Shown: positions 9,633-58,966, counted from the first letter of the stretch. The stretch: 64,000 bases of DNA from Minisyncoccota bacterium (GCA_041651395.1 JBAZJI010000001.1:763920-827919); one strand, 5' to 3'. Notes: generated from the letters alone by a model not told the origin. Numbers and translations are program-made.

Positions 9633-9699
9633 CCGCCAACAAAGAATCACGCAAGGACGTGATTTTTTGTTGGCGGAATTAGCTAAAAGGGATTCGAAC
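9633..9699. repeat. orphan hairpin plus tRNA-3'-half-like motif
   Basis: Hairpin CCGCCAACAAAGAATCACG / CGTGATTTTTTGTTGGCGG, followed by AATTAGCTAAAAGGGATTCGAAC. On the minus strand this reads TTCGAATCCCTTTTAGCTAA, a T-loop/T-stem/acceptor-like string. It is homologous to 24807-24843. Confidence 0.6.
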
Positions 9700-9865
9700 A
9701 TAAGAAAATTACCCTGAAAAGAAAAATAAAAATGCCCAAAGTGTTTTTTATTTTTCTCTGCTCCAGATACTATAAGACAAAAAGGTGCAAAAACCCTGTT
9801 TTTTGTATTGCATTCCAAAACATTTTATATATAATAAATTCATCAATTCCAAAAAAACTAAATAT

Positions 9866-10897
9866 ATGAGTAAGAAAGCAATTTTGAAAGAGACTATCAA
9901 CCATATTGATATTAAATCTTTCAACGCGATCCCGATCGTGGATCAATTCAACGACATGGCATTTTCTGCCAGAACGTTGGCCAGAGCGTCGTATATCTAC
10001 GACGACATGATTAAGGACAAAAAATGTTCTATTTTTTTATGCCTAGCCGGCTCTTTGATTAGCGCCGGGCTAAAAGCCGCTATTTATGATCTGCTAAAAA
10101 ATAATATGATCGACGCCATCATCTCTACCGGCGCCAATATTGTCGACCAGGATTTTTTTGAAGGTTTGGGTTATAGGCATTACAAAGGCGACATCTTTGC
10201 TAATGACGATGCTCTCATGAAACAAAATATTGATCGCATTTACGATACTTACATTGATGAGGACGAATTATTACACTGTGACGCCACGGTCGCCAAAATC
10301 GCCCAGGAACTTGAACCGCGCCCCTACTCTTCCCGCGAGTTTATTGCACAAATGGGCAAATATTTGAAGAAAAATAATTTGGGTAAAGATTCCATCGTTC
10401 GCTTAGCTTACGAAAAAAATGTCCCGATTTTTGTCCCGGCTTTTTCTGATTGCAGCGCCGGCTTGGGCCTGGCCAATTACCAGCACAAAATGGGAAGCAA
10501 GCCCAAAGTCACCATCGATTCCGTCCAAGACTTTTTGGAGCTTACAAAGATAAAAATTGCCGCTGGCGAGACTGGCCTTTTCATGCTCGCCGGAGGAGTG
10601 CCAAAAAATTTTGCCCAAGACACAACGGTAATGGCAGAAATTTTGACTGAAAAAGAGGCCAAGCTCCACAAGTACGCCGTACAGATAACCGTAGCTGATG
10701 AGCGCGACGGCGCGCTCTCCGGATCCACTTTGCGCGAAGCCCATTCCTGGGGCAAAGTCGGCGAGGAAAATGAACAGATGGTCTATGCCGAAGCGACTAT
10801 GGCCTTCCCTCTCATTGCCAGCTATGTTTACCACAAAAAAAATTGGAAAGACCGCGAACCTAAAAATTACGGCAAAATTTTCAATACAAAAAAATAA
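9866..10897 (+). CDS. deoxyhypusine synthase-like protein (DHS / homospermidine-synthase superfamily)
   Basis: The start was moved to MSKKAILK at 9866. STGANIVDQD motif, plus C-terminal GSTLREAHSWGK matching the DHS catalytic-Lys motif (E..SWGK). Confidence 0.85.
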   Translation: MSKKAILKETINHIDIKSFNAIPIVDQFNDMAFSARTLARASYIYDDMIKDKKCSIFLCLAGSLISAGLKAAIYDLLKNNMIDAIISTGANIVDQDFFEGLGYRHYKGDIFANDDALMKQNIDRIYDTYIDEDELLHCDATVAKIAQELEPRPYSSREFIAQMGKYLKKNNLGKDSIVRLAYEKNVPIFVPAFSDCSAGLGLANYQHKMGSKPKVTIDSVQDFLELTKIKIAAGETGLFMLAGGVPKNFAQDTTVMAEILTEKEAKLHKYAVQITVADERDGALSGSTLREAHSWGKVGEENEQMVYAEATMAFPLIASYVYHKKNWKDREPKNYGKIFNTKK

Positions 10898-10967
10898 ATT
10901 AAAACGCTCATGCCCAGTCCCGCGCTATAGGACTGGGCAAACGCATTTATAAAAAATTAACAAAAAA

Positions 10968-11567
10968 ATGGAAGACTCAATCATTAATAGTGTAAACACT
11001 GCGCCAGATATAGACCATGATCTCGTTCCTAAAAAAGTATTTTTTGTGAGCGGTTCTGGCGTGCACAAAGACCGCTTAGCCTCATTTGAGGCGGCTCTGC
11101 GCACTGCCGGCATTGAAAAATGCAATTTGGTTTATGTTTCCAGCATTTTTCCGCCTAATTGCAAAATCGTTTCCAAGAATGAAGGATTAAAGCATCTGAA
11201 TGCCGGCCAAATCACTTTCTGCGTAATGGCCAGAAATGATACAAACGAGCCGAACAGGCTGATTTCTTCTGCTATCGGCTTGGCCGTGCCTAGCGATTCC
11301 AGTAATTATGGCTATCTCTCCGAGCACCATGCCTTTGGAGAAAAGGCTGAAATTGCCGGAGAATATGCCGAAGACCTGGCCGCCACCATGCTAGCCACCA
11401 CCTTGGGCGTGGACTTTGATATCAATTCCGCCTGGGATGAGCGCAAAGAGATATTTACATCAAGCGGCCACATATTTAAAACTACACACACCGTGCAGTC
11501 TGCCGAAGGAAATAAGGACGGGCTTTGGACAACCACTATTGCCGCTGCTGTATTTTTGTTCGATTAA
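10968..11567 (+). CDS. pdaD: pyruvoyl-dependent arginine decarboxylase (archaeal PvlArgDC type)
   Basis: 199 aa. [11 protein letters not shown] contains the Ser-Ser self-cleavage site typical of PvlArgDC. Confidence 0.85.
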
Positions 11568-11572
11568 ACATT

Positions 11573-12418
11573 ATGCCTAGCAATTTTGGCGGGTTAGAAA
11601 AAAAATATTGCCAATACCAAACCTCGCGCTTTGCTGTTTTGCCGGTTCCTTTTGACGCAACCAGCACTTGGATAAAAGGGGCAGATTTGGGACCCAAGGC
11701 TGCCATCGAAGCCTCGGGCAATATGGAACTTTACGATATAGCCACGAGTAGCGAGCCATACTTAAAAGGAATATTCACCGACAAACCAGTCAAAGCTAAA
11801 AAGACCCAAGATATGGTCGCTAAAGTGCAGAAGCAAATAGCTAAGTATTTAAGCGATGGAAAAATTCCGATAGTCTTAGGCGGAGAACATTCAGTTTCGG
11901 CTGGCGCAATATTTGCCGCCGCCGAAAAATATCCGAATTTGAGTATTTTGCACTTTGACGCACACTCGGATAGGCGCGATATTTATGAAGGCGACAAGTT
12001 TAATCATGCCTGCGTGATGGCCCGCGCTCAAGAAAAATGCCACAATATTGTTTCGGTGGGAATCAGAAGCCAAGCCATTGAAGAAAAAGGAAATTTAGCC
12101 AAGGATACGATATTTTTTGCCCACGAAATTTACCGTGAAACTGCCCTGCCAGAAAAAGTTTGCCAAGCCCTAAAAAATGAAAATATTTACCTCACAATCG
12201 ATTTAGATGTTTTTGATTCCGGCTTAGTGCCCTCCACGGGCACACCTGAGCCGGGCGGGCTTACTTGGTATCAGGTCATTGAAATAATTACTGAGGTTGC
12301 CAAACAAAAAAATATTATTGGCTTCGATGTAGTAGAGCTCTGTCCAAATAAAATTAACAAAGCCCCAGACTTCCTAGCTGCTAAGCTTATCTATTCGGTC
12401 ATGGCCAGAATAAAATAG
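11573..12418 (+). CDS. speB: agmatinase (ureohydrolase family)
   Basis: Mn-binding motifs GGEHS, HFDAHSD and TIDLDVFD. I used the start MPSNFGG at 11573, because the ORF-track start at 11525 overlaps the upstream gene. Confidence 0.85.
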   Translation: MPSNFGGLEKKYCQYQTSRFAVLPVPFDATSTWIKGADLGPKAAIEASGNMELYDIATSSEPYLKGIFTDKPVKAKKTQDMVAKVQKQIAKYLSDGKIPIVLGGEHSVSAGAIFAAAEKYPNLSILHFDAHSDRRDIYEGDKFNHACVMARAQEKCHNIVSVGIRSQAIEEKGNLAKDTIFFAHEIYRETALPEKVCQALKNENIYLTIDLDVFDSGLVPSTGTPEPGGLTWYQVIEIITEVAKQKNIIGFDVVELCPNKINKAPDFLAAKLIYSVMARIK

Positions 12419-12430
12419 AAATCCGACAAA

Positions 12431-12460
12431 AAAATACCCCCTGAAATGGGGGAATTTTTT
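12431..12460 (+). terminator. rho-independent terminator after speB
   Basis: CCCCC TGAAAT GGGGG stem-loop followed by a T7 tract. Confidence 0.7.
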
Positions 12461-12543
12461 TATAAATAAATAATATTGCGCCCAATAACCCTTTATGGTA
12501 TAACAACGCATCTTTAACAAATCCTATAAAGGAGGAATAACCA

Positions 12544-13554
12544 TTGAGTGACAAAGGACAAGAGGCGGTAAAGCTGCTTGAATCACTTGAAAACGATTTG
12601 GAATCCCGCAAGGAAAAAAGTTTTTTAGCGATTTTTGAGGACCAACGCTTCAAAGAGGCACGCAAAATCTGTCAACAGGAAAAAGAGGGCGTCTATCGGG
12701 AAATATTCAGACATCTCGAGGATAGAAAGCAATTCGCAACTGCCCTGCTGTTAGATTTGGCCATTGGCGTGGAGGAGGTGGAAGAGGCAGTTAAAGGCGC
12801 GATTATTACCAAAGATTCTCAAGTTCGTTATGATACGAGAAAATACGTTGCCGCCATCATTAATTACGGCTATAAAAAAGGATTTCTGGTTTTAGAAAAT
12901 CCCCAAGAGAAAACCCTAAAAATAATTGAGCTCATTGAGGCCGACCGGCACTGCCGCTACAGCTCCAACATCCAAACATATTTAGAAAATCCCATCGTAA
13001 TTAAATTGATTGACGAATGCGCCGGGACAGACAAACATGCGATCATGGAAGGACTGATGCTCCACATTAAAAACAAACTCTCTTGGGTCCCGCTGGTTAT
13101 TATCAACGAAATCGCAAGCAAATACTTCGAATTGGAACTGCCCAAAATCCCGGAAAATTGGCAAGGCCGACTCTCCAAAATCAACAACAAATATTTGGTT
13201 TGGGGGTTAGGCAACGGGCTCTACCCTATCGCGACGGAAAAAGAACGCTTTGATAAAGAAATGCTTGATTTGGAATCAGCTTTCTTGCACGTCTCGGGGA
13301 AAAAATTCTCCCAGTTAATCGGAGCGATGCGCACCCACTTCAAAAAACCCATTCTTGTTTGGCTGTGTCTAAATTACCTCGACAACAATCATTGCGGGGA
13401 GCTGGCCATAAAAGTCCTGGAATATTGCGTAGAGAGCCCGCCATGCGAAGACTCAGGAAAAACCGAAGCTGAGATCAATTATGCCAAAGATTCCTGGCTG
13501 CGCTGGGGCTTTGAGGAGGGCTACATCCTTCATAATAGTTGGCCGCAAAAATAA
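12544..13554 (+). CDS. hypothetical protein (no recognisable domain)
   Basis: 336-aa ORF with a TTG start 6 nt after a strong AAGGAGG Shine-Dalgarno. Helical, Glu/Lys-rich N-terminus. No motifs recognised. Confidence 0.5.
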   Translation: MSDKGQEAVKLLESLENDLESRKEKSFLAIFEDQRFKEARKICQQEKEGVYREIFRHLEDRKQFATALLLDLAIGVEEVEEAVKGAIITKDSQVRYDTRKYVAAIINYGYKKGFLVLENPQEKTLKIIELIEADRHCRYSSNIQTYLENPIVIKLIDECAGTDKHAIMEGLMLHIKNKLSWVPLVIINEIASKYFELELPKIPENWQGRLSKINNKYLVWGLGNGLYPIATEKERFDKEMLDLESAFLHVSGKKFSQLIGAMRTHFKKPILVWLCLNYLDNNHCGELAIKVLEYCVESPPCEDSGKTEAEINYAKDSWLRWGFEEGYILHNSWPQK

Positions 13555-13585
13555 AAAACATTTCCCCGCTACTGGCGGGGAATTT

Positions 13586-15787: not shown

Positions 15788-15891
15788 TGCGCAATTGCCT
15801 TATTATCTTACTTCACTGAAAAATTTTCGCAAACCCCGCGCCGGTATTTTCGGTGCGGGGAAAATTATCCAAACAAATTACCCTAAAATGA

Positions 15892-16518
15892 TTATTGCGG
15901 AGAGCAAAATTGCTCTTTACAATAATCTTGTTGCGCTCCAATGGGCATCGTGTTGCACGAACTGCACATTTTCTGCGCCGCGTCACTAGCAGCTTCTTGG
16001 GCCTCTTGCATTATTCCGGTCATGTCCTGAAAAGTTATCTCGGCGGGCAAATCAAACTCATGCGAATCAACCACCCAAGGACGACATTTATAAGACAATT
16101 TTTTTGATTCGTCTTCTTGTACAGCCTCAGTTGGCGTAGGCTTGAAATAGTCCTGTGGGCTTATGGCAAGTTTTGTGCCTTCTTTTTGGTTACTCTGCCA
16201 GCCATAAAGCGTATTCCCATCATATAAAGTCAACAACTGATTCTTCTCGCTGTCGGGCATGAGCATCACTACTTTTATTTTTTGACCGTAAGCATACATG
16301 GTTATCTTTTGCCCGTCGGAAGTATTAGCCTCACACTTAAAATTTTTCCCCAAATTAAAAATTTCCTCCATCTTCCCAGTCACTTCCTCGCTGAAGGCCA
16401 TTTGTTCCGGGCTAATCACCGCAACTCGCTTTTGACGCAAAACAAAAAAGGCTCCGATACCAACAACTAAAAACATTATGGCAATAACCGAAAAAACCAC
16501 TTTTTTATTCATATTCAA
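15892..16518 (-). CDS. membrane-anchored or secreted hypothetical protein
   Basis: 208 aa with an N-terminal TM and Cys pairs near the C-terminus. ATGA overlap with the upstream HD gene. Confidence 0.5.
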   Translation of the reverse strand: MNMNKKVVFSVIAIMFLVVGIGAFFVLRQKRVAVISPEQMAFSEEVTGKMEEIFNLGKNFKCEANTSDGQKITMYAYGQKIKVVMLMPDSEKNQLLTLYDGNTLYGWQSNQKEGTKLAISPQDYFKPTPTEAVQEDESKKLSYKCRPWVVDSHEFDLPAEITFQDMTGIMQEAQEAASDAAQKMCSSCNTMPIGAQQDYCKEQFCSPQ

Positions 16519-18033: not shown

Positions 18034-18049
18034 GTTTTTGTAACCAAGC

Positions 18050-18280: not shown

Positions 18281-18384
18281 AGCCTCTACTGGGCCTATTA
18301 TAGAACAAAAATAGCCCTCTTTCTATGTTGACTTTTCCACAGATATCTTGTATAAATTAATATCTTAACAACTGGAGGACTTAC

Positions 18385-18777: not shown

Positions 18778-18799
18778 AGCCCTCTAGGGGGGGCTTCTT

Positions 18800-19252: not shown

Positions 19253-19254
19253 AA

Positions 19255-19689: not shown

Positions 19690-19690
19690 A

Positions 19691-21611: not shown

Positions 21612-21614
21612 AAA

Positions 21615-23891: not shown

Positions 23892-23953
23892 AAATCAAAA
23901 GGCACCCTCGCGGATGCCTTTCAAATTTAGAATTATTGGTTAGCCCTGCGGAG
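23892..23953. repeat. 62-nt direct repeat, copy 1 (contains a terminator hairpin)
   Basis: Identical base for base to 24071-24132. On the minus strand it contains AAAGGCA-TCCGCGAGGG-TGCCTTTT. Confidence 0.95.
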
Positions 23954-24049
23954 TAGTCGCGAGAAGCATTACTGCCAGCTCGGCGCTTTAGCGCCGAATA
24001 CAAAATCTGCCGGCGGCGGCCGGCACCTTGGACAGAAAGCTGCCCGGGT

Positions 24050-24144
24050 ATCGCGGACTTGCTTTGAGATAAATCAAAAGGCACCCTCGCGGATGCCTTT
24101 CAAATTTAGAATTATTGGTTAGCCCTGCGGAGCAAGTCCGCGAT
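24050..24144. repeat. 14-bp perfect inverted repeat enclosing repeat copy 2
   Basis: ATCGCGGACTTGCT (24050-24063) pairs with AGCAAGTCCGCGAT (24131-24144). Confidence 0.9.
24071..24132. repeat. 62-nt direct repeat, copy 2 (probable terminator of the RRM gene)
   Basis: Identical to 23892-23953. Lies 17 nt downstream of the stop codon of the 24149-24454 CDS on the minus strand. Confidence 0.95.
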
Positions 24145-24148: not shown

Positions 24149-24454
24149 TTACCAAGCATTCCTCCTGCCTCCCCTGTCACCTCCGAAGTCCCTGCGGGGC
24201 TTGTCGGTCATAGGGCGGGCTTCATTGACAGTCAACTGCCTGCCGTCCATTTCTTTGCCATTGAACATTTCAATAGCCTTTTGAGCTTCCTCATCGTTGG
24301 ACATTTCCACGAATCCGAAACCCTTGGAACGGCCGGAGAACTTGTCAGTGATGATGCTGGTAGACTCAACGGTTCCAGCTTGGGCAAAAGCCTGAGCGAG
24401 AGCCTCTTGGGTAGTGCCCCAAGCGAGGTTACCAACATAAAGTTTCTTAGCCAT
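24149..24454 (-). CDS. RNA-binding protein with an RRM domain and a Gly/Arg-rich tail
   Basis: RNP-2 LYVGNL, RNP-1 KGFGFVEM, C-terminal RRDFGGDRGGRR. Confidence 0.9.
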   Translation of the reverse strand: MAKKLYVGNLAWGTTQEALAQAFAQAGTVESTSIITDKFSGRSKGFGFVEMSNDEEAQKAIEMFNGKEMDGRQLTVNEARPMTDKPRRDFGGDRGGRRNAW

Positions 24455-24689: not shown

Positions 24690-24776
24690 GGAGGGGTGGC
24701 TGAGCGGCCGAAAGCAACACACTGCTAATGTGTTAACTGGGCAACCGGTTCGAGGGTTCGAATCCCTCCCCCTCCG
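24690..24776 (+). tRNA. tRNA-Ser (anticodon GCU), no encoded CCA
   Basis: Acceptor GGAGGGG/CCCCTCC, anticodon loop CTGCTAA, long variable arm, T-loop TTCGAAT. Confidence 0.9.
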
Positions 24777-24788
24777 CTCCAAAGGAAA

Positions 24789-24812
24789 ATCGCACGACTG
24801 GTGCGATTTTTT
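24789..24812 (+). terminator. terminator after tRNA-Ser(GCU)
   Basis: ATCGCAC GACTG GTGCGAT followed by a T6 tract. Confidence 0.8.
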
Positions 24813-24842
24813 CTTTGGCGGACTTGATAGAAGGGATTCGAA

Positions 24843-24885
24843 GTTTATACTGGCCGAGCTAGCAAGCGAGGGCAGTAAATGCCTC
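24843..24885. repeat. 43-nt direct repeat, copy 1
   Basis: GTTTATACTGGCCGAGCTAGCAAGCGAGGGCAGTAAATGCCTC, identical to 24949-24991. Confidence 0.95.
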
Positions 24886-24948
24886 CCCTACATTAATTCA
24901 ACTGAGGGAAACGAATCCCAAATTCGAACTTGTCTACCGTCAGACAGG

Positions 24949-24991
24949 GTTTATACTGGCCGAGCTAGCAAGCGAGGGCAGTAAATGCCTC
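24949..24991. repeat. 43-nt direct repeat, copy 2
   Basis: Perfect copy of 24843-24885 (period 106 nt), 55 nt upstream of the SemiSWEET start codon. Confidence 0.95.
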
Positions 24992-27101: not shown

Positions 27102-27176
27102 GGCCTCGTAGTTCAACGGATAGAATGCAAGCTTGCGGAGCTTGCGATCCAGGTTCGATTCCTGGCGAGGTCACCA
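27102..27176 (+). tRNA. tRNA-Arg (anticodon GCG), CCA encoded
   Basis: Acceptor GGCCTCG/CGAGGTC (one G-U pair), anticodon stem CAAGC/GCTTG, loop TTGCGGA, T-arm CCAGG TTCGATT CCTGG, discriminator A. Confidence 0.8.
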
Positions 27177-27179
27177 TAA

Positions 27180-27209
27180 AATTAAAACGCCCGAAAGGGC
27201 GTTTTAATT
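27180..27209 (+). terminator. terminator after tRNA-Arg(GCG)
   Basis: AATTAAAACGCCC GAAA GGGCGTTTTAATT. Confidence 0.8.
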
Positions 27210-27266
27210 TTGCTGTATGCCGCGCATCGCGCAGCGGGGGGGCGAGGATACGAACCGCATCCTTAA

Positions 27267-34719: not shown

Positions 34720-34800
34720 GGGCGGGTGGCGGAATGGCAGACGCGCAGGACTTAGGATCCTGTACCGCAAGGTGTGGAGGTTCAACTCCTCTCCCGCCCA
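34720..34800 (+). tRNA. tRNA-Leu (anticodon UAG), no encoded CCA
   Basis: Acceptor GGGCGGG/CCCGCCC, anticodon stem CAGGA/TCCTG, loop CTTAGGA, long variable arm. Confidence 0.85.
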
Positions 34801-34806
34801 CAACTT

Positions 34807-34827
34807 GGCACCTTTAGGTGCCTTTTT
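34807..34827 (+). terminator. terminator after tRNA-Leu(UAG)
   Basis: GGCACC TTTA GGTGCC followed by a T5 tract. Confidence 0.8.
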
Positions 34828-34902
34828 GTATGGTTAAGAAATTGAAGGCGGAGACGGAGTAGAACCTTCGGCTCAATACAGGACATTCTTGTTTCTTTAA
34901 CT

Positions 34903-44806: not shown

Positions 44807-44914
44807 CAGGCAAAAGGGCGAGCATCGAGCCCTACCCTGCATCATTAGATGAATAAGTCATAATGTCTTATTCCCTCTTTTCAAGCATATAGTTTTTCTG
44901 TTAGAATACCGTAC

Positions 44915-44995: not shown

Positions 44996-45070
44996 GCGGG
45001 TGTCGTATAGTGGCTATTACACATCCTTGCCATGGATGAGACGAGGGTTCGATTCCCTTCACCCGCTCCA
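44996..45070 (+). tRNA. tRNA-Gly (anticodon GCC), CCA encoded
   Basis: Acceptor GCGGGTG/CACCCGC, anticodon stem CATCC/GGATG, loop TTGCCAT, T-arm GAGGG TTCGATT CCCTT, discriminator U. Confidence 0.9.
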
Positions 45071-45099
45071 AGAAAAAATGCCCCGCAAGGGGTGTTTTT
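45056..45099 (+). repeat. 44-nt direct repeat, copy 1 (tRNA-Gly 3' end plus its terminator)
   Basis: CCTTCACCCGCTCCAAGAAAAAATGCCCCGCAAGGGGTGTTTTT, identical to 45221-45264. Confidence 0.95.
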
Positions 45100-45118
45100 T
45101 GTTGGTTTGATTAGTGTT

Positions 45119-45264
45119 GAAGGGAATCGAAGGCGGAGCCGCGACTGGCGGCGAGCCGGGCCCTGAGGCAAAGTCACCAGACTTTGACCGAAGGGCGATT
45201 CTCCGCCGCAGGCGGACAGGCCTTCACCCGCTCCAAGAAAAAATGCCCCGCAAGGGGTGTTTTT
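45119..45264 (+). ncRNA. candidate structured RNA / tRNA-trailer module (uncharacterised)
   Basis: GC-rich and hairpin-dense: GGCGGAG 45132-38 with CTCCGCC 45201-07; CCGC/GCGG 45139-51; CAAAGTC/GACTTTG 45169-86. It ends in a copy of the tRNA-Gly 3' end plus an intrinsic terminator. There is no expression evidence. Confidence 0.3.
45221..45264 (+). repeat. 44-nt direct repeat, copy 2
   Basis: Perfect copy of 45056-45099, 165 nt downstream. Confidence 0.95.
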
Positions 45265-45332
45265 ATTGCAATAGGCCCCGCCGAAACATCCCCTCAAACC
45301 AACCCTTATTTTCCAAGGGTTTTTTAGGGTCA

Positions 45333-45389
45333 AAAAAGCCTTATTTTACGTGGTTTTTGCCGAAAAAGCCTTATTTTACAATGGTTTTT
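45333..45389 (+). repeat. tandem direct repeat (2 units, period 30) upstream of the 3D-domain gene
   Basis: AAAAAGCCTTATTTTACGTGGTTTTT followed by AAAAAGCCTTATTTTACAATGGTTTTT. Confidence 0.85.
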
Positions 45390-49078: not shown

Positions 49079-49161
49079 GCCCGGGTGGTGGAATGGTATA
49101 CACGAAGGACTTAAAATCCTTTGATCTCACGATCTTGTGGGTTCGAGTCCCGCCCCGGGCA
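49079..49161 (+). tRNA. tRNA-Leu (anticodon UAA)
   Basis: Acceptor GCCCGGG/CCCGGGC, anticodon stem AAGGA/TCCTT, loop CTTAAAA, long variable arm, T-arm GTGGG TTCGAGT CCCGC. Confidence 0.9.
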
Positions 49162-49163
49162 CA

Positions 49164-49202
49164 GTAAACAAAAATCAGTCGCAAGATTGATTTTTTGTTT
49201 AC
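49164..49202 (+). terminator. terminator after tRNA-Leu(UAA)
   Basis: GTAAACAAAAATCA ... TGATTTTTTGTTTAC long hairpin. Confidence 0.7.
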
Positions 49203-49330
49203 ATAGATGTTTTCGGGACGAGAACCCCAATAAGTGAGGAACGCCTATTGGCGCAGCGGATTATCGAAATATCACCATTGCACGGCAATGCCAAAGAACT
49301 TCTGATTTATGCCTTATAAATTCTAAATTC

Positions 49331-49357: not shown

Positions 49358-49362
49358 GCTTG

Positions 49363-49434: not shown

Positions 49435-49454
49435 ATAAGAAAATAAGAATTCTC

Positions 49455-51261: not shown

Positions 51262-51278
51262 AATTTTCTGAGATGATT

Positions 51279-51755: not shown

Positions 51756-51811
51756 AAAGCGCTACCAGTATTTGTAGCACTTTTTAGGCTTTTGAGCAAG
51801 CTGGAAACTAA

Positions 51812-52174
51812 TTATTTTCCGGTCAAAATTTTGTCATTTTCGACTTCGGGCAGCTTAAAAACCAAATAACAAACATTTTCCTTATCCGCATATTCTTCAT
51901 GCCTATCGCCGGGATCCAACACAACCAAGGACCCTGAAGGCAAACTGTACTCTTGACCATTAAACTTGGCGTGCATGGGCGTTAATAAATAAAAGACTTC
52001 CGTAAAATGTTCATGATAATGCTCGTCAGCCTTTGAGCCTGCCGAAATGACTACTTCTAAAAAAGCCATTTTCTCCACCATTTTGCCAATAGGCAAACCC
52101 ACCGAGGATACTTGATATCCTCCCTGCCCTCGATATCTTTTTATCTCTTTAGAATCCGGCAAAATTATTTTCAT
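51812..52174 (-). CDS. cupin-domain protein
   Basis: Cupin motif GSKADEHYHEHFTEVFY ... GD.H. Confidence 0.75.
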   Translation of the reverse strand: MKIILPDSKEIKRYRGQGGYQVSSVGLPIGKMVEKMAFLEVVISAGSKADEHYHEHFTEVFYLLTPMHAKFNGQEYSLPSGSLVVLDPGDRHEEYADKENVCYLVFKLPEVENDKILTGK

Positions 52175-52191
52175 ACAGCGCTATTATTCAA

Positions 52192-52212
52192 TCTAGCGGA
52201 GGGGGTGGGATT
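52192..52212 (-). repeat. direct duplicate of the tRNA-Ser(CGA) 3' end
   Basis: TCTAGCGGAGGGGGTGGGATT is identical to 52309-52329, which covers the tRNA 3' T-stem, acceptor strand and 5 trailer nt. Period 117 nt. Confidence 0.95.
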
Positions 52213-52313
52213 CACTGCCAAATTCTGCTGAATTTGCCAGTACCTTGTTTCAAATCCCAGTCCATTTATTTCCGCTTTCAAGCAACTACGCCGGTCGCGC
52301 AGTTACTTTCTAG

Positions 52314-52400
52314 CGGAGGGGGTGGGATTTGAACCCACGATCGGGTTGCCCCGATACCGCATTTCGAGTGCGGCGCCTTCGGCCACTCAGCCACCCCTCC
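52314..52400 (-). tRNA. tRNA-Ser (anticodon CGA), no encoded CCA
   Basis: Reverse complement: GGAGGGG..CCGCA CTCGAAA TGCGG, long variable arm, GTGGG TTCAAAT CCCAC CCCCTCC G. Confidence 0.9.
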
Positions 52401-52436
52401 ATAATCAAAAACTTATAACATAAATACTAGCAAAAA

Positions 52437-53381
52437 TCAAAGCAGCGGGAAATCGTTATCCCGGCGGTATCTGGCTGGAAGTAAAAAAGGCAAATTAAAC
52501 CCCAGAAAACCCGTTAACTTTTTAGCCAAATTGCCGCGCGCAATGGCTGGCCGGAAAAGATCCTGTATTTTTTTATTATACTTTTCCAAATCGGGAAAAT
52601 TTTCGACCAAAATATCTACAGCTGTCAGACCCCAAATAACTCCTCCCCCGCTCCAAGGCTTGCAAAGCCCGGCCGCATCCCCGCAAACCGCCATGTTGCC
52701 AGAAACTATTTTTCTTAAGCCATGCGGGATAAGGGCGGAATGAATTTTTTCCCGCTGGTAGGGCCATTTTTTTTCTTGGCAAAATTTTTCAAAAGAATCC
52801 ATCAGACCTTTGGCCTCACCCATGACTCCGTATTCTACATCCTCGCCTCTTGGTATCCGCCAATAAAAACCACTTTTGTGCGCCCAAGTTTGGACGTAAT
52901 TTTGGTTATCTTTTTCCTCACCGATAAACTGAATGCCGAGATAAAAATCTCCACTAGCCATGGCTAGCTCCTTTTCGGCTCGAGAATAAGCCCCATCGCA
53001 AAAAATATACTGAGAAAAACCTGAAGGAATCTCCACGATCTCCCGGCTAAACTGGTAATTAACGCCTGCTTGCCTGCCTAAGTCCATTAATCTTTGATTG
53101 ATCTTATTCCTATCCAAAACATAATGTACCGGTTCCATTACCAATTCAATCTGTTTTTGCGGATAATTTATCAAGCACTTATCGATCTGATTTAAGACAA
53201 AATCCTTTTCTATTTTAACAAAATTTCCTAATCTTACTGAAATTAAGCCAGAGCAAACCTTGCCAAATGGTGCAGCTTTTTTTTCAAAAACAGTCACCTC
53301 GAAACCCTTTTGAGCTAAGCGGTAAGCGGCATATAATCCACAAATTCCCGCCCCGACGATGGCAAGATTATTTTTTTTCAT
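52437..53381 (-). CDS. FAD-dependent oxidoreductase (geranylgeranyl-reductase-like)
   Basis: N-terminal dinucleotide fold LAIVGAGICGLYAAYRLAQKGFEVTVFEK and a later GDAAG motif. Confidence 0.75.
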   Translation of the reverse strand: MKKNNLAIVGAGICGLYAAYRLAQKGFEVTVFEKKAAPFGKVCSGLISVRLGNFVKIEKDFVLNQIDKCLINYPQKQIELVMEPVHYVLDRNKINQRLMDLGRQAGVNYQFSREIVEIPSGFSQYIFCDGAYSRAEKELAMASGDFYLGIQFIGEEKDNQNYVQTWAHKSGFYWRIPRGEDVEYGVMGEAKGLMDSFEKFCQEKKWPYQREKIHSALIPHGLRKIVSGNMAVCGDAAGLCKPWSGGGVIWGLTAVDILVENFPDLEKYNKKIQDLFRPAIARGNLAKKLTGFLGFNLPFLLPARYRRDNDFPLL

Positions 53382-53467
53382 ACTGCATCATAAGGCTTGC
53401 CTTGCTACTTTTCAACAGCGCGTTCAAAAATCTCAAAAAATACTGTAAAATATAAGCAAGGCACATT

Positions 53468-55264: not shown

Positions 55265-55265
55265 T

Positions 55266-55883
55266 ATGGCGAAAAACAAGGGCTTTAGCCTTATCGAAAT
55301 TCTCGCCGCCTCGGGCATATTAATTATTATCACTATCTCTATTGCTCTCTTACAAAGAAATATTTTTAGCTTTGGAAGGCTTATTCAAGGAAATTTAGAT
55401 GCTCAAAAGGAAGCCAAAAGAGCTTTCGCCCAAATGACCAAAGATATCAGAAATGCTTCTTATGCTTCTAATGGGGCTTACCCCATTGCCTCGGCCTCGA
55501 CTAGTAGTCTGACATTTTTTGCCGACGTTGATGGCGACAAATATAAAGAGCAGGTCCGCTATTTTGTCGACGCCTCCAATACGCTGCGTCGCGGAATTAT
55601 TGAGCCAATTACCAGCACCCAACCAATAAGTTACTCGGCGCCGGAAGTTAATTCTATTTTGGTCAGTAAAATCTTTAACACTTCCACCCCGATTTTTACT
55701 TATTACAATACTAATTATAATGGAACAAGTAGTACCGCCCCGCTCTCCTATCCGCTAAACATGATGGATGTTCGTTTGGTTAAAATTGAAATATTATTGA
55801 AAACTCAAGAAGGAAATCAACAGCCCCTCACAATAATCATGACCACTCATGCCATGCTCCGAAACCTAAAAGATAATTTATGA
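55266..55883 (+). CDS. minor pilin / pseudopilin
   Basis: MAKNKGFSLIEILAASGILII prepilin-type N-terminus. 205 aa. Confidence 0.8.
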   Translation: MAKNKGFSLIEILAASGILIIITISIALLQRNIFSFGRLIQGNLDAQKEAKRAFAQMTKDIRNASYASNGAYPIASASTSSLTFFADVDGDKYKEQVRYFVDASNTLRRGIIEPITSTQPISYSAPEVNSILVSKIFNTSTPIFTYYNTNYNGTSSTAPLSYPLNMMDVRLVKIEILLKTQEGNQQPLTIIMTTHAMLRNLKDNL

Positions 55884-57313
55884 ACCAACAAATTTACGCC
55901 AGAGGTTCGACTATTTTACAAACAATGTTTGTTTTGTTTATCGCCATATTATTAATAGTCGGTTTTACAAGCTTTGCTACCTATAGCGTCCGGGCGGCAC
56001 GCTATCAAGAAAAACGTGAGCTGGCGCTGCAATTAGCTGAATCGGGCGTAAATTATTACCGCTGGCACCTCGCCCATGCTACAACTGATTACCAAGATGG
56101 CACGACAAGCACCGGCCCTTATATCCATCAAGTCAAAGATAAAAATGGCAATCTCTTGGGGACATTTTCATTGGAGATTAGCCCGGCAGCCACTGGTTCC
56201 AGCATTGTCAACGTTCAATCAACCGGCCAACCAACCAATGAAAGCCTAATTAAAAGAAAAGTTAAGGCGGTTTTGGCCATCCCTTCCTTTTCGCAATACG
56301 CAGTGGCGGCCAATGCCAATTTACGCTTCGGTTCAGGTACGGAAACTTATGGCCCCATACACTCCAACGGCGGAATACGATTTGACGCCGTTGCGCATGG
56401 GATAATCACTTCAGCAGTTGCCTCTTATAATGATCCTGATCACTTCGGAGGGAATGAATTTGGCGTACATACCCACACCTCGCCGATTGATCCACTGCCA
56501 CCTAATAACGTGCCCAACCGCTCGGATGTTTTTATGGCCGGAAGAAAATTTCCTGTGCCGATTTTGGATTTTCCCGGCCTAACTGGAGATTTGGGTAATC
56601 TTAAAACAATTGCCAATTCCACTAGTGGAAAATATTTTGCCCATAGCGGAAGCCTTGGATATCATATCGTCCTTAAAAATAATGGGACCTATGATATCTA
56701 CAAAGTTAACCGGTTGGAAAATGCCTCGGGTGGCTGCAGTAATGAATTAGGACAAGATGGTTGGGGCACTTGGAGCATCAAAAGTACTAACGGCGAAGAA
56801 TACATCAATAATTATGCTTATCCTTCTAATGGGATAATTTTTGTCGAGGATAACCTTTGGATTGACGGCCAGGTTAATAATAATCGACTTACGATTGCGG
56901 CTGCCCGATTCCCCGATACTACCTCTACGCGCACCAGCATCACCATTAATCAAAACCTTACTTACACCTATTATGACGGGCGCGATGTTGTCGGGCTTAT
57001 TGCTCAAAAAAATGTTAATGTTGGGCTGTTTAGCAATAATGATCTGAAGATTGATGCTGCGGCTATTGCCCAATATGGCCGCGTGGGGCGTTATTATTAT
57101 GGCAGCGGCTGCGGGCAACATAATAAAAACCGGCTAGAACTCGTCGGCATGATTGGAACCTTTGAGCGCTATGGATTTGCCTACACCGATGGCACTGGCT
57201 ATAAATATCGTGACCTTTATTATGACTCCAACCTAATGTATGCCCCTCCCCCCCATTTTCCTTTGGCGGCTGACCACTATCAAATTATCTCCTGGGAAGA
57301 ACTCACTAATTAA
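55880..57313 (+). CDS. PilX-like pilus assembly protein (large minor pilin)
   Basis: RGSTILQTMFVLFIAILLIVGF hydrophobic N-terminus in the PilX_N style. 477 aa. ATGA overlap with the upstream pilin gene. Confidence 0.65.
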   Translation: MNQQIYARGSTILQTMFVLFIAILLIVGFTSFATYSVRAARYQEKRELALQLAESGVNYYRWHLAHATTDYQDGTTSTGPYIHQVKDKNGNLLGTFSLEISPAATGSSIVNVQSTGQPTNESLIKRKVKAVLAIPSFSQYAVAANANLRFGSGTETYGPIHSNGGIRFDAVAHGIITSAVASYNDPDHFGGNEFGVHTHTSPIDPLPPNNVPNRSDVFMAGRKFPVPILDFPGLTGDLGNLKTIANSTSGKYFAHSGSLGYHIVLKNNGTYDIYKVNRLENASGGCSNELGQDGWGTWSIKSTNGEEYINNYAYPSNGIIFVEDNLWIDGQVNNNRLTIAAARFPDTTSTRTSITINQNLTYTYYDGRDVVGLIAQKNVNVGLFSNNDLKIDAAAIAQYGRVGRYYYGSGCGQHNKNRLELVGMIGTFERYGFAYTDGTGYKYRDLYYDSNLMYAPPPHFPLAADHYQIISWEELTN

Positions 57314-57317
57314 AGAC

Positions 57318-57360
57318 AGGAAATAAAAAAGGAGTAAAAATTACTCCTTTTTTATTTCCT
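57318..57360. terminator. 20-bp perfect hairpin, bidirectional terminator
   Basis: AGGAAATAAAAAAGGAGTAA AAA TTACTCCTTTTTTATTTCCT, between the pilX-like stop and tRNA-Ala. Confidence 0.85.
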
Positions 57361-57367
57361 CAAACTG

Positions 57368-57440
57368 TGGACCCAACCGGACTTGAACCGGTCGCCTCAT
57401 CCATGCCATGGATGCGCTCTACCAGATGAGCTATGGGCCC
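57368..57440 (-). tRNA. tRNA-Ala (anticodon GGC)
   Basis: Reverse complement: GGGCCCA..CATCC ATGGCAT GGATG..TGGGTCC A. The G3:U70 identity pair is present. Confidence 0.9.
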
Positions 57441-57467
57441 AAAATCATCCTAAACAAGGCTCTGGTG

Positions 57468-57539
57468 TGCCCTCAGAGGGAATCGAACCCCCATCTTTTC
57501 CTTAGGACGGAATTGCTCTATCCATTGAGCTATGAGGGC
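57468..57539 (-). tRNA. tRNA-Arg (anticodon CCU)
   Basis: Reverse complement: GCCCTCA TA GCTC AATGGATA GAGC A ATTCC GTCCTAA GGAAA .. GGGGG TTCGATT CCCTC TGAGGGC A. The anticodon stem has one A-A mismatch. Confidence 0.75.
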
Positions 57540-57611
57540 TTATTTTTGCCTCTCCTCTGACAAAAAGAGAATAGCATTTTTGGACAAAAATGACAAGTGT
57601 GTTATTTTTCT

Positions 57612-57641
57612 TTGCCTTACTCAAACAAAGCATGCTACAAT
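57612..57641 (+). promoter_or_regulatory. candidate sigma-70 promoter of the htrA-like gene
   Basis: TTGCCT, 18 nt, TACAAT, ending 13 nt before the ATG at 57654. Confidence 0.4.
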
Positions 57642-57653
57642 ATATAAGGAAAC

Positions 57654-58682
57654 ATGACTCGTAAAACACCAATAACCCAAATAGCGAAAAAAGTGTGCCC
57701 AGGAGCCATTACTATTGTGGCTACCAAAGATCTCCCCTCTTTAGAGGAGTTCTACGCTTTAGCTTTTGAAGGGAAAAGCATTAGCTTGCCTAAGGCCAGC
57801 AATGAAAAGAAAGAACCGACGAAAGTTGGAGGCGGATCAGGTTTTATTGTTTCTGCCGATGGCTTCGTAATTACCTGCAACCACGTCGTGCAAGATCCGG
57901 AATGCGAATATACGGTAGTCATTAGCCCAGAGAAAAAATATAAAGCAGAAGTTTTGGCTCGCGATCCTTTGGTTGATTTAGCTATTCTTAAAATTGACGG
58001 AAGAGATTTGCCAGTAGTACCCATGGGTGATTCTGACACCATCGAATTAGGGGAAAATGTTTTAGCTGTAGGTAATAGTTTAGGAGAATTCGATGATACG
58101 ATATCTATGGGTATTGTTTCCGGCCTCTCCCGTCGCATTACAGCTTACGCTGGAATACACGCCGGAGCAGCTAATTTAGGTGGCCTTATCCAGACCGATG
58201 CCGCCATTAATCCCGGAAACTCCGGAGGCTGTTTGGTAAATATGGAGGGAGAAGCTATCGGCATTAATACGGCGGTTGTTATGGGGGCCCAAAACATCGG
58301 TTTTGCTATTCCGATTAATTTGGCCAAAAATATGATTGTCGAGGTTAAAAAATTCGGCAAAATCAAAAGACCATATCTTGGCTTGCGCTATTTTGTCCTT
58401 AACGAAACAATCGCTAAACAAAATAATTTGCCAGTCAACAATGGCGCCATTATTGTGCGTGAAAGGCTAGGCGAACCGGCCGTTGCTCCCTTTTCCCCTG
58501 CCGATAAAGCCGGCTTAAAGGAATTCGATATCATTACCGAATGCGATGGGGAGAAGATTACTGAACAAAACACGCTTGGTGACGTTTTACAGCGCCACGA
58601 AATACACGATGAAATAATTTTTACCCTTATCCGCAGCAATAAGGAAATAAAAATAAATATTAAGCTGGAAGAAAAAATTTGA
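57654..58682 (+). CDS. HtrA/DegP-family serine protease (trypsin-like domain plus PDZ)
   Basis: Catalytic blocks TCNHV, DLAILK and GNSGGCLVN, with a C-terminal PDZ-like region. Confidence 0.9.
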   Translation: MTRKTPITQIAKKVCPGAITIVATKDLPSLEEFYALAFEGKSISLPKASNEKKEPTKVGGGSGFIVSADGFVITCNHVVQDPECEYTVVISPEKKYKAEVLARDPLVDLAILKIDGRDLPVVPMGDSDTIELGENVLAVGNSLGEFDDTISMGIVSGLSRRITAYAGIHAGAANLGGLIQTDAAINPGNSGGCLVNMEGEAIGINTAVVMGAQNIGFAIPINLAKNMIVEVKKFGKIKRPYLGLRYFVLNETIAKQNNLPVNNGAIIVRERLGEPAVAPFSPADKAGLKEFDIITECDGEKITEQNTLGDVLQRHEIHDEIIFTLIRSNKEIKINIKLEEKI

Positions 58683-58696
58683 ATCCCATTAGATAT

Positions 58697-58720
58697 AAAA
58701 ACACGCCTAAGCGTGTTTTT
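58697..58720 (+). terminator. terminator after the htrA-like gene
   Basis: AAAAACACGC CTAA GCGTGTTTTT. Confidence 0.8.
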
Positions 58721-58723
58721 ATA

Positions 58724-58744
58724 TTGGGGTAGCTAACGGGAATC
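58724..58744 (-). repeat. degenerate direct duplicate of the tRNA-His 3' end
   Basis: TTGGGGTAGCTAACGGGAATC compared with TTGGGGTGGCTAACGGGATTC at 58891-58911 (19/21 match). Period 167 nt. Confidence 0.85.
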
Positions 58745-58864
58745 TCACGTCGTCCGCCAGACGGCGGACTCTTTCAAAACCCCCGGTTTTGAATAATTTC
58801 CAATACGGGGAGGATGAGGATGTCATCCTCCCCAACCCCCTCCTTTTCAAATCCCGTTGGTAAC

Positions 58865-58888
58865 AAAAAACCTCCTCAGGGAGGTTTT
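58865..58888 (-). terminator. terminator after tRNA-His
   Basis: CCTCC TCAG GGAGG flanked by A6 and T4 tracts. Confidence 0.75.
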
Positions 58889-58891
58889 CTT

Positions 58892-58966
58892 TGGGGTGGC
58901 TAACGGGATTCGAACCCGTGCTAAGAGCTCCACAAACTCTTGTGCTGCCGCTACACCATAGCCACC
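58892..58966 (-). tRNA. tRNA-His (anticodon GUG) with encoded G-1 and CCA
   Basis: Reverse complement: G-GTGGCTA..AGAGT TTGTGGA GCTCT..ACGGG TTCGAAT CCCGT TAGCCAC C CCA. G-1 pairs with C73. Confidence 0.9.

Follow-up and report, generated by a model that had tools for sequence, protein, structure and literature searches.

Hairpin-rich non-coding modules carrying inverted and direct copies of tRNA 3' ends in a Paceibacterota genome, tentatively read as miniature mobile elements

Seven tRNA genes with free downstream space were found to bear a small, non-coding, hairpin-rich module at the 3' end, the weak cases Arg-GCG and Leu-TAA included, in the 64-kb window (the whole stretch of 64,000 nt analysed) from a member of the Patescibacteria (CPR), Paceibacterota. 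The modules are ~100-180 nt long, with no ORF inside. The initial annotation described an inverted T-arm copy after a hairpin downstream of six tRNAs; the hairpins are present, the six coordinate pairs are located exactly as given, and the inverted copy (U') forms the module's left edge. In the general layout, the tRNA runs to the T-loop and continues with U (T-loop and 3' T-stem strand), the remaining tRNA 3' end and a terminator hairpin (X). Next comes U', the sequence of U from T54 on in reverse complement, followed by a body (E) of one to three GC-rich hairpins. The unit ends with a repeat, in direct orientation, of the tRNA 3' end; this second copy starts either within the T-loop or where T-loop and T-stem meet, and often includes its terminator. 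X is an intrinsic bidirectional terminator (GC-rich hairpin flanked by A-tract and T-tract) at Gly, Ser-GCT, His, Leu-TAA, Leu-TAG, Arg-GCG and an RRM-protein gene. This identity accounts for X but not for U', E or the repeats. U-X-U' folds as a long imperfect hairpin with paired T-loop/T-stem, an acceptor-strand bubble and a paired CCA/A-tract, and U' can pair with the start of the downstream repeat over only 6-10 bp. The tRNA-Gly-GCC locus carries the following features.

44996-45070, plus: tRNA-Gly-GCC (ARAGORN, Rfam)
45048-45061, plus: U (T-loop, 3' T-stem strand and 2 nt)
45056-45099, plus: direct repeat copy 1 (44-nt exact repeat)
45073-45099, plus: terminator hairpin X (terminator scan)
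45118-45131, plus: U', perfect 14-nt inverted copy of 45048-45061 (repeat search)
45132-45220, plus: module body E, GC-rich hairpins (fold, motif search; no Rfam or phage match)
45202-45216, plus: terminal palindrome of E, TCCGCCGCAGGCGGA
45221-45264, plus: direct repeat copy 2 (44-nt exact repeat)

Copy 1 of the Gly repeat comprises the tRNA 3' end from the second base of the 3' T-stem strand, plus the terminator hairpin; the inner repeat is identical to the host genome's own terminator variant. The sequence 3' of copy 2 is orthologous to that 3' of the single terminator in relatives, whose compared contigs begin at the tRNA-Gly 3' end. Gly, Ser-CGA and His have direct repeats of the tRNA 3' end at 106-179 nt downstream, and Ser-GCT and Val have degenerate ones, which removes the earlier objection that att-type scars should be direct repeats. 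Perfect tRNA-end/terminator repeats measure 21 nt (Ser-CGA), 44 nt (Gly) and 62 nt (RRM gene).

A 13-nt query, the T-loop + 3' T-stem + 1 nt in reverse complement, was compared with the 140 nt downstream of each tRNA. U' scores were 13/13 for Gly-GCC, 12/13 for Ser-GCT and His-GTG and 11/13 for Ser-CGA, with lower values for Arg-GCG (10/13) and Leu-TAA (9/13 in this 13-nt register). Shuffled trailers (34,000) gave per-trailer probabilities of 0.0014 for scores of at least 11 and 0.00015 for at least 12; among 17 tRNAs, ~0.02 loci with at least 11 matches are expected and four independent ones were observed. The Gly, Ser-GCT, His and Ser-CGA matches are therefore far beyond chance. Arg-GCG and Leu-TAA, the other two cases originally listed, are weak, and Leu-TAG, a further case with one indel, had been missed. 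In the cross-tRNA comparison the own tRNA gave the top score for Gly, His and Ser-CGA and the joint top for Ser-GCT; the Arg-GCG copy is weak, because it scores no better than with foreign T-arms. The Leu-TAA match of 12/14 holds in the register first reported, with two central purine-purine mismatches, and is further decayed in the 97% relative L209 (9/14). The Cys/Leu-TAA spacer is 41 nt in L085 versus ~200 nt in the window.

49079-49227, plus: tRNA-Leu-TAA, terminator and weak U'
49164-49202, plus: long terminator palindrome of Leu-TAA
49214-49227, plus: weak U' of Leu-TAA (12/14)
34720-34869, plus: tRNA-Leu-TAG, terminator and inverted copy
34776-34798, plus: U of Leu-TAG
34807-34827, plus: terminator of Leu-TAG
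34847-34869, plus: U' of Leu-TAG, whole T-arm and acceptor strand, one indel
27102-27256, plus: tRNA-Arg-GCG, terminator and doubtful copy
27178-27211, plus: terminator of Arg-GCG
27242-27256, plus: doubtful inverted T-arm-like stretch of Arg-GCG
9630-9699, plus: orphan block (repeat search)
9633-9676, plus: terminator palindrome of orphan block
9687-9699, plus: U'-like AAGGGATTCGAAC of orphan block

The orphan block opens with the tRNA-3'-end-like TCACCGCCA, 1.07 kb from tRNA-Ser-TGA, and the reported trailer similarity between 9663 and 24807 extends over 38 nt at 76% identity.

Decay of convergent duplicate tRNA genes, chance and assembly artefact are highly improbable sources of U' and largely refuted. 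Real terminator-sharing pairs (Cys/Leu-TAA in the window; L002) do match likewise, and the palindromic TTCGAA in the T-loop inflates weak matches. However, no tRNA-like remainder was found beside U' with ARAGORN or Infernal (even at E<=10), the copy ends at T54 in the four best loci, a non-tRNA gene has the same layout, and chance is rejected by the shuffle and cross-tRNA controls. None of 113 tRNA-Gly trailers from unrelated metagenomic bacteria with an identical 25-nt 3' end has an inverted copy at <=2 mismatches. Of 103 further tRNAs from fetched loci, the only ones to reach at least 11/13 were two genuine convergent pairs and a single true parallel, in a Saccharibacteria MAG. Around the 20 perfect-stem terminator-like hairpins of the window, flanking inverted matches exceed shuffles only at tRNA-linked ones. 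Assembly artefact was rejected, as the exact direct repeats (21, 43, 44 and 62 nt) fit no single k-mer length and independent NCBI, Logan and ENA assemblies show the same architecture.

The two serine loci are arranged as follows.

24690-24777, plus: tRNA-Ser-GCT (ARAGORN)
24757-24769, plus: U of Ser-GCT
24784-24842, plus: X, TGGCGGA, bubble and U' together
24784-24813, plus: terminator X of Ser-GCT
24830-24842, plus: U' of Ser-GCT (12/13)
24843-24991, plus: module body of Ser-GCT
24843-24885 and 24949-24991, plus: 43-nt hairpin unit ACTGGCC..GGGCAGTAAAT, two copies
52313-52400, minus: tRNA-Ser-CGA (ARAGORN)
52323-52333, minus: U of Ser-CGA
52309-52329, minus: direct repeat copy 1 (21-nt exact repeat)
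52192-52308, minus: 117-nt insertion (empty versus filled sites in relatives)
52282-52306, minus: hairpin after the tRNA
52249-52259, minus: U' of Ser-CGA
52213-52242, minus: hairpin ACTGGCAAATTC..GAATTTGGCAGT
52192-52212, minus: direct repeat copy 2 (AATCCCACCCCCTCCGCTAGA)

At Ser-GCT, X and U' are separated by TGGCGGA, the complement of the tRNA 3' end, and an AT-rich bubble; the 43-nt units are separated by a stretch that resembles, in degenerate form, a tRNA 3' end and a T-arm. Comparison with related genomes identifies the modules as insertions: the window and L209/L210 contain the Ser-CGA unit, whereas L081/L214 have a clean empty site. The duplicated tRNA ends co-vary, matching the resident tRNA end within each genome (both Ser-CGA copies have CCGCTAGA in the window and CCGCCA in L209), and module hairpins vary by compensatory substitutions, as in E between the window and L206-208. 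The reported tailoring to individual T-loops was recovered: TTCAAAT of Ser-CGA appears as ATTTGAA, and TTCGAAT in the homologous Ser-GCT module as ATTCGAA. E bodies of 60-120 nt have no counterpart in local sequence, and are homologous and constant in length across Ser-GCT, Ser-CGA and the RRM gene, and across L072 and units 1 and 2 of L080 (see below). Within the 64 kb recurrence is confined to sub-motifs, a GGCAGTRAAT hairpin four times and TCCGCC..GGCGGA twice; palindromes TCCGCC..GGCGGA and ACTGGC..GGCAGT are present in further Paceibacterota loci.

Modules are able to stack in tandem, as seen at tRNA-His-GTG and in Saccharibacteria.

58892-58965, minus: tRNA-His-GTG (ARAGORN)
58902-58914, minus: U
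58678-58888, minus: trailer with two layers
58865-58888, minus: layer 1 terminator X1
58846-58858, minus: layer 1 U'1
58807-58833, minus: layer 1 hairpin
58752-58769, minus: layer 1 palindrome GTCCGCCGTCTGGCGGAC
58724-58743, minus: layer 2 imperfect copy of tRNA 3' end (~20 nt)
58693-58724, minus: layer 2 terminator X2
58678-58690, minus: layer 2 U'2, overlapping the HtrA stop codon

The second His layer (~115 nt) is missing from L209. In three lineages the His U' keeps 12-13/13 and hairpin 1 does not vary, while the terminator stem between U and U' has been replaced by three different compensated stems across lineages. In more distant relatives (69-74% HtrA identity) the His U' is absent altogether, which counts against a miniature-element reading. 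The Saccharibacteria MAG L080 has two ~178-nt homologous tandem units at tRNA-Leu-TAA and the MAG L072 has one at the same tRNA; repeats in both start exactly at the T-loop/T-stem boundary (position 60/61). The L072 U' fits its own tRNA at only ~10/13, again unfavourable to miniature elements, and the suggestion that copies are always tailored to their own T-stem thus holds in part, the copy being partly inherited with the module.

Nor is the feature confined to tRNAs, as first supposed. Modules occur at at least one mRNA terminator, that of the RRM-protein gene (24149-24454), where the same layout includes a perfect 14-nt inverted copy of non-tRNA sequence.

23892-24144, minus: 3' UTR module (repeat, motif searches)
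24131-24144, minus: U
24071-24132, minus: 62-nt repeat with terminator
24050-24063, minus: U', 14/14, perfect copy of unique non-tRNA sequence
23954-24049, minus: module body, ending ..CTGGCAGTAAT
23892-23953, minus: second 62-nt repeat

The 62-nt repeat, perfect in the window, is imperfect in 97% relatives. Repeats undergo gene conversion and vary in length (21-62 nt), thus perfection is no proof of recent integration. U' and repeats are templated from local sequence, as seen with the RRM non-tRNA U', the Gly terminator variant and the Ser-CGA repeats. Such templating, in the non-tRNA case and with genome-specific terminator variants, would also be expected of a replication or repair by-product, in which template switching or fold-back at the terminator palindrome generates a direct-inverted-direct micro-triplication with no dedicated element, small palindromes accumulate later, and the match between the arms is maintained by hairpin-templated (quasi-palindrome) correction and by gene conversion. 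A strong palindromic terminator is at the centre of every case, the repeats undergo conversion, the start of the direct repeat falls within or beside the T-arm (itself a hairpin and a possible host for the switch back), and no mobilising gene was found among the scanned window ORFs. However, fold-back should copy the acceptor strand, and at nearly all loci that part is unrelated AT-rich sequence, although T-loop/T-stem are copied perfectly. The E bodies, which lack a local counterpart and are homologous between loci at constant length, and the absence of the feature from the 113 other bacteria sharing the tRNA-Gly end, also argue against this origin, which appears unlikely but credible.

A role in RNA is improbable; for the readthrough sequestration first suggested, the data tip in neither direction. 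On readthrough, U' would pair with the T-loop and 3' T-stem strand, marking precursors for cleavage or decay or insulating downstream genes, or the hairpins would form a small structured RNA that ends tRNA-like. Predicted folds are very stable, and somewhat more so on the tRNA-sense strand in 8/10 units (Gly -16 kcal/mol, Ser-CGA -9), a bias that hints at RNA-level constraint, against miniature elements. The His U' and the L209 Ser-CGA hairpin have G.T wobbles on their sense strand, compensatory changes preserve hairpins, and the His U' and its hairpin are conserved in three lineages. The Ser-CGA hairpin has no T-tract, so readthrough is expected there, and the Ser-GCT module has a promoter-like site (TTGATA-16-TATACT). 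Against this, a promoter and terminator scan found such sites not to be general across modules, the mismatch at Ser-GCT reads C.A on the sense strand, no Rfam family matches, and an RNA role for the direct duplication of the tRNA end is not obvious. Presence or absence in close relatives, and absence further out, argue against an essential conserved function. Moreover, a strong bidirectional terminator separates U and U' at most loci, so both arms would seldom be in one RNA, and a DNA-level role for U:U' is plausible.

A recombination or mobile-DNA footprint, one of the explanations first offered, is the best reading, with blocks present or absent among relatives. Specifically, the modules may be miniature elements, non-autonomous and entering the tRNA at the boundary of T-loop and T-stem, whose insertion leaves the tRNA end restored (probability roughly 0.45). 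They would supply a replacement tRNA 3' end and terminator, and a recombinase or nuclease encoded elsewhere would move them in trans. The U-X-U' hairpin may be a DNA-level recombination or target-recognition structure, comparable to the folded integron attC or CTX-phi attP, and gene conversion or hairpin-templated repair would maintain agreement of U' and the repeats with the resident tRNA. Against miniature elements speak the wide variation of bodies from tRNA to tRNA, which a typical multi-copy element does not show, the great and variable length of the repeats, the poor fit of the Leu-TAA U' in L209, and the negative searches, described below, for a mobilising enzyme and for free or phage- or plasmid-borne copies.

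In line with the original statement on integrases, no integrase, transposase or Cas1-like gene, nor any other recombinase, was found among ~50 window ORFs scanned by Pfam (~200 aa or more, plus small ORFs beside tRNAs). A DUF2779/Cas4-like nuclease domain (1041-2582) lies at least 20 kb away from any tRNA-linked module. No recombinase was found beside L072/L080, no module match to Rfam 15 covariance models at E<=10 in the window or L080, no phage match, and no excised or free form or copy within a phage or plasmid. No described family with this layout was found, in agreement with the initial annotation.

The closest parallels are tRNA-targeting integrative elements (tyrosine-integrase phages, islands and CIME-type remnants with T-loop-region crossover), which share the tRNA 3' direct repeat from T-loop/T-stem, restoration of the tRNA by the incoming copy and tandem accretion on the tRNA side. 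As at att sites, such repeats flank the insert (Gly 44, Ser-CGA 21, His ~20 nt imperfect), and relatives have empty and occupied sites (Ser-CGA) or one versus two units (L072/L080). In contrast, the modules measure just ~100-180 nt and neither contain a gene nor have an integrase close by (window ORFs; L072/L080 flanks), the host's own terminator is often part of their repeat, an inverted T-loop/T-stem copy is present in them, and they also occur at an mRNA terminator. With integron attC and CTX-phi attP(+) they share a long imperfect hairpin with paired ends, an unpaired central bubble and a structure that persists while sequence varies. The likeness is structural only, as no IntI was found in the window, there is no sign of Xer involvement, and the resident tRNA gene itself supplies one hairpin arm. 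Integron arrays carry their newest unit beside the fixed site; the module layout is compatible with this but does not establish insertion order.

REP/BIME, ERIC and MITE-like repeats and IS1397-type hairpin-loop insertions are likewise small non-coding intergenic hairpin units near terminators, with palindromes that recur, as here in other Paceibacterota loci. However, the 64-kb window holds no near-identical multi-copy family, terminal inverted repeats and a fixed short target duplication are lacking (duplications vary, 21-62 nt), and each module bears target-derived inverted and direct copies. CRISPR repeat duplication, casposons (Cas1-type) at tRNA 3' ends and the IS1202 group (24-29-bp duplications) resemble the modules in a long palindrome-containing target duplicated beside a fixed 'leader' (the tRNA) and in the repeat-insert-repeat array of L080, but no Cas1 or casposase was seen in scanned ORFs, the inserts are mutually homologous structured units rather than spacers, and duplications are variable, up to 62 nt. 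Group II introns (EBS/IBS) and IS110/IS1111 bridge or seek RNAs are also complementary to sequence just 5' of the insertion point; the modules have no intron or ribozyme core and no recombinase, and these systems do not duplicate tens of target bases. A new class of enzyme-poor, guide-bearing mobile DNA, with a ~100-nt non-coding unit whose U' pairs with T-loop/T-stem or pre-terminator sequence, the target 3' end being duplicated and the tRNA left intact, is quite improbable; a host enzyme might recombine the folded single-strand hairpin, or a guide might direct the unit as bridge RNAs do.

Patescibacteria have tiny genomes and few recognised mobile elements, and Saccharibacteria have a module family parallel to that of the window. 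If mobile, the modules would be among the smallest site-specific insertion elements known, and would show how tRNA 3' ends survive repeated use as landing sites. The target-matched U' raises the question of whether nucleic-acid pairing or hairpin formation, rather than protein recognition alone, contributes to target choice. Duplicated tRNA ends and terminators are open to mis-annotation as tRNA fragments or att scars. They also fall at contig ends in short-read assemblies of close relatives, breaks that could also stem from tRNA sequence common to co-occurring strains.

Inserted blocks were found in trailers (the DNA 3' of a tRNA) of the window; a duplication of the 3' end of the target marks their limits, and within them the sequence immediately 5' of that duplication is present again in inverted orientation. 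The window is a piece of the chromosome of a Patescibacteria (CPR) bacterium, and one of its proteins is 100% identical to one attributed to a Candidatus Paceibacterota MAG. It has 17 tRNA genes (ARAGORN and Rfam concordant), and its gene products include GyrA, FtsH, a short IF-2, RecG, UvrD, type IV pilus proteins and T4SS-type pilins. On inspection of the trailers, the layout starts at T54 with the T-loop and 3' T-stem strand (U), followed by the remainder of the tRNA and then by X, an intrinsic terminator that is bidirectional in most cases. Downstream of X, the A-tract and T-tract pair, often together with the CCA end (TTGG, TGGCGGA); the acceptor strand lies opposite unrelated AT-rich sequence, and beyond it the inverted copy (U') pairs with U. 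In the predicted fold, U-X-U' forms a long hairpin interrupted by an internal bubble. A simple fold-back origin was rejected, as the inverted acceptor strand that it predicts is missing. One to three GC-rich hairpins (E) lie 3' of U', and downstream of E the tRNA 3' end is present once more, as a direct copy, which closes the layout. The initial annotation had argued against att scars on the ground that these are normally direct repeats, an argument that does not hold, since direct repeats of the tRNA 3' end do exist at these loci.

Direct copies of the tRNA 3' end downstream of E
Gly: 44 nt, exact, terminator included
Ser-CGA: 21 nt, exact
His: about 20 nt, imperfect, with another terminator and another U'-like stretch after it
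Ser-GCT and Val: degenerate

In the trailer of tRNA-Val-TAC (window 44808-44850), the degenerate copy of its own T-loop-to-3'-end sequence (TCGAGCCCTACCCTGCATCAT) has a small T-arm-like hairpin (AGGGC..GCCCT) ahead of it. The terminator of an RRM-domain protein gene (24149-24454) has the same layout as the tRNA loci. There, U is followed by two identical copies of a 62-nt block that includes the terminator, and between these copies lie a perfect 14-nt U' and, after it, a hairpin body. Immediately 5' of the downstream copy, a hairpin ACTGGC..GGCAGT(R)AAT is shared by Ser-GCT, Ser-CGA and the RRM gene, and is also present in the Leu-TAA trailer of one relative. At Gly and His, a palindrome TCCGCC..GGCGGAC lies ahead of the downstream copy; it is repeated in the Paceibacterota locus L215, within partial pseudo-copies of tRNA-Arg-TCT. 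There (L215:5115-5470), three or four such pseudo-copies lie downstream of tRNA-Arg-TCT; in them the palindrome TCCGCCAnCnGGCGGAC takes the place of parts of the D/anticodon region and of the T-loop, and all of them end in tRNA-3'-end-like CTGGTGARGGCAC.

The inverted copies had initially been reported 3' of six tRNAs, with positions that are all correct. For scoring, the reverse complement of the T-loop, 3' T-stem strand and 1 nt was matched against the 140 nt 3' of each tRNA.

Match of U' to its own tRNA
Gly: 13/13
Ser-GCT: 12/13
His: 12/13
Ser-CGA: 11/13
Arg-GCG: 10/13
Leu-TAA: 9/13 (12/14 in the register used initially)

Comparison with shuffled trailers, the control foreseen for this claim, gave P = 0.0014 for scores of at least 11 and P = 0.00015 for at least 12, leaving four loci clear. 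The observation stands at four loci, two or three more are plausible, and Arg-GCG is weak. Each copy had also been said to be specific to its own tRNA. In cross-pairing with all other T-arms this is upheld at Gly, His and Ser-CGA, where the own tRNA is best, and at Ser-GCT it is tied best; however, the Arg-GCG copy is no better matched to its own T-arm than to foreign ones. The Leu-TAG trailer, overlooked initially, has an inverted copy of the entire T-arm plus acceptor strand. For 20 terminator-like hairpins of the window with perfect stems, flanking inverted matches rise above shuffles only at the tRNA-linked ones. The inverted copy was found in none of 113 trailers of tRNA-Gly genes with an identical 25-nt 3' end, obtained in a metagenome scan with that 25-mer; the matches are mostly from unrelated high-GC bacteria and serve as a negative control only. 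A convergent tRNA pseudogene was rejected, since the opposite strand has no remainder of a tRNA. A k-mer assembly artefact is excluded by the differing lengths of the exact repeats (21, 43, 44 and 62 nt) and by the recurrence of the structures in independent assemblies.

The comparison covered 64 kb of the source genome and ±10 kb around the loci of relatives. In an IF-2 scan of the genome collection the best relative was only 50% identical, and close relatives were therefore reached via protein look-ups.

Relatives compared, with identity to the window per protein
L206-L213: GCA_964596325.1 and Logan/ENA assemblies, about 96-97% (amino acid)
L085: Logan assembly, 89%
L081/L214: Logan assembly, 76-90%
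L215-L220: remoter relatives, 69-74%

The blocks are insertions. At Ser-CGA, L081/L214 have a clean empty site, with the downstream ORF directly after the tRNA, and a 117-nt block is present in the window and L209/L210. Block repeats are homogenised with the resident tRNA: the two Ser-CGA tRNA-end copies co-vary per genome (CCGCTAGA twice in the window, CCGCCA twice in L209), indicating concerted evolution. Next to this locus, the 97% relative has an L-serine dehydratase gene between tRNA-Ser-CGA and a DAO-family gene (L209:3685-5034), which the window lacks (52400-52437). Block hairpins are maintained. At His, U' and the first hairpin are nearly invariant across the window, L209 and L214, and between U and U' lies a terminator whose stem takes three different forms, each internally compensated. 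U' there matches 13/13 in both L209 and L214, with pairing that reaches 16 bp in L209. The second His layer (about 115 nt in the window), with ATTCAAA at both boundaries, is missing from L209, and the window's outer terminator is similar to the sole terminator in L214. In remoter relatives the tRNA-His T-arm is the same and U' is absent. At the RRM gene, the 97% relatives have U-X-U'-E in common with the window, and two of the hairpins show compensatory changes. The outer terminator block of these relatives has diverged, and thus the perfect 62-nt repeat of the window reflects a recent conversion or re-duplication. At Gly, the sequence 3' of the outer repeat copy is orthologous to that after the single terminator in relatives' contigs, which start at the tRNA-Gly 3' end, and the inner copy has exactly the sequence of the variant of that terminator found in this genome. 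The Cys/Leu-TAA spacer has only a 41-nt shared terminator in L085, as against about 200 nt in the window. The weak U' of Leu-TAA is further decayed in L209.

The blocks are able to stack. In a parallel family from two Saccharibacteria MAG loci fetched through IF-2, tRNA-Leu-TAA is followed by units of about 178 nt, one in L072 and two in tandem in L080. Each unit comprises a terminator, GGGAATCGAACC (the inverted T-arm), a three-hairpin body of about 105 nt, and the repeat CCCTCC..GGGCACCAC together with a terminator. The bodies of all three copies are homologous, and the repeat begins precisely at the T-loop/T-stem boundary. The constant unit length favours a discrete element over random deletion remnants. 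The L072 inverted T-arm fits its own tRNA more poorly (about 10/13), and thus U' is at least partly inherited with the unit. Template switching during replication, with no element involved, would account for the local templating of U' and of the repeats. However, it leaves unexplained both the missing inverted acceptor strand and the foreign E bodies, homologous between loci and constant in length, and is considered unlikely.

The anatomy of the modules and their comparison suggest, with a probability of roughly 45%, that they are miniature non-autonomous insertion elements. Such an element would enter at the T-loop/T-stem boundary, restore the tRNA end and be moved by an enzyme encoded elsewhere, with the U-X-U' hairpin as a putative structure for recombination or recognition at the DNA level. 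What favours a role in DNA is that the two arms, in RNA, would normally be kept apart by a strong terminator. Against this stands the somewhat greater fold stability of the tRNA-sense strand in 8 of 10 units; an RNA-level role of the trailers nonetheless seems improbable. As initially stated for integrase, none was found among about 50 window ORFs scanned, nor was a transposase or Cas1, and none of these lies beside the Saccharibacteria arrays. Rfam searches of the window and L080 (gathering and E ≤ 10 thresholds) returned only the 17 tRNAs and noise, with no family on any module. Nothing was found by blastn searches of phage genomes with the module bodies of Gly and L080 or by a pattern scan of viral contigs, and a metagenome scan with a pattern from the Saccharibacteria module body gave no match.

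Several other readings of module parts were rejected. The idea that the downstream tRNA-end copy continues leftward as a complete pseudo T-arm, broken by a palindrome, has marginal support at Gly (p~0.02) and at the RRM gene (p~0.05), and none at His, Ser-CGA, L080 or L072. The Ser-GCT module has sigma-70-like promoter matches, TTGATA-16-TATACT (window 24824-24851), of which U' forms the spacer, and TTGTCT-16-TATACT (24930-24957), but nothing comparable is seen at Gly. A primer-binding site pairing to the tRNA 3' terminus fits Ser-type loci (TGGCGGA) but fails for Gly and His. A small ORF in the His hairpin was rejected, as the changes between lineages there are non-synonymous loop changes.

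Free-standing homing-endonuclease-type genes lie directly 5' of tRNAs with complex trailers in other genomes (L072:16490-16975, L214:1022-1525, L215:4797-5051). Two HNH genes 5' of tRNA-Leu-TAA, from a Saccharibacteria and a Paceibacterota genome, are 58% identical, well above housekeeping identity, and a GIY-YIG gene is upstream of tRNA-Arg-TCT in L215. The window has no counterpart of these HNH or GIY-YIG genes. A 1.07-kb low-GC (35.5%) segment of the window (8560-9628), with one PdaC/DUF3298-like ORF, lies between tRNA-Ser-TGA and an orphan block of tRNA-3'-end-like sequence, terminator and inverted T-arm, with the two halves of a 7-nt inverted repeat (GATGTCC/GGACATC) as its boundaries. 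The segment may be an insertion with cargo at a site like those of the modules. In a non-CPR bacterium (L086, metagenome contig Ga0209633_10027589), a 126-nt insertion at tRNA-Gly is bounded by a direct repeat of the T-loop-to-3'-end sequence, with a hairpin abutting the repeat and no inverted T-arm copy. Thus, miniature att-bounded inserts without U' exist elsewhere. At L002:2545-2760, a tRNA-Val-TAC gene, flanked by the inverted repeat CCCCGTTAAAT / ATTTAACGGGG, apparently lies inside another tRNA-like gene, split in the anticodon loop. Three repeats of about 26 nt at window 45298-45388 (AAAAAGCCTTATTTTAC..TTTTT; a weak hairpin plus T-tract) precede a 156-aa ORF and are conserved in the relatives L081, L082 and L085.
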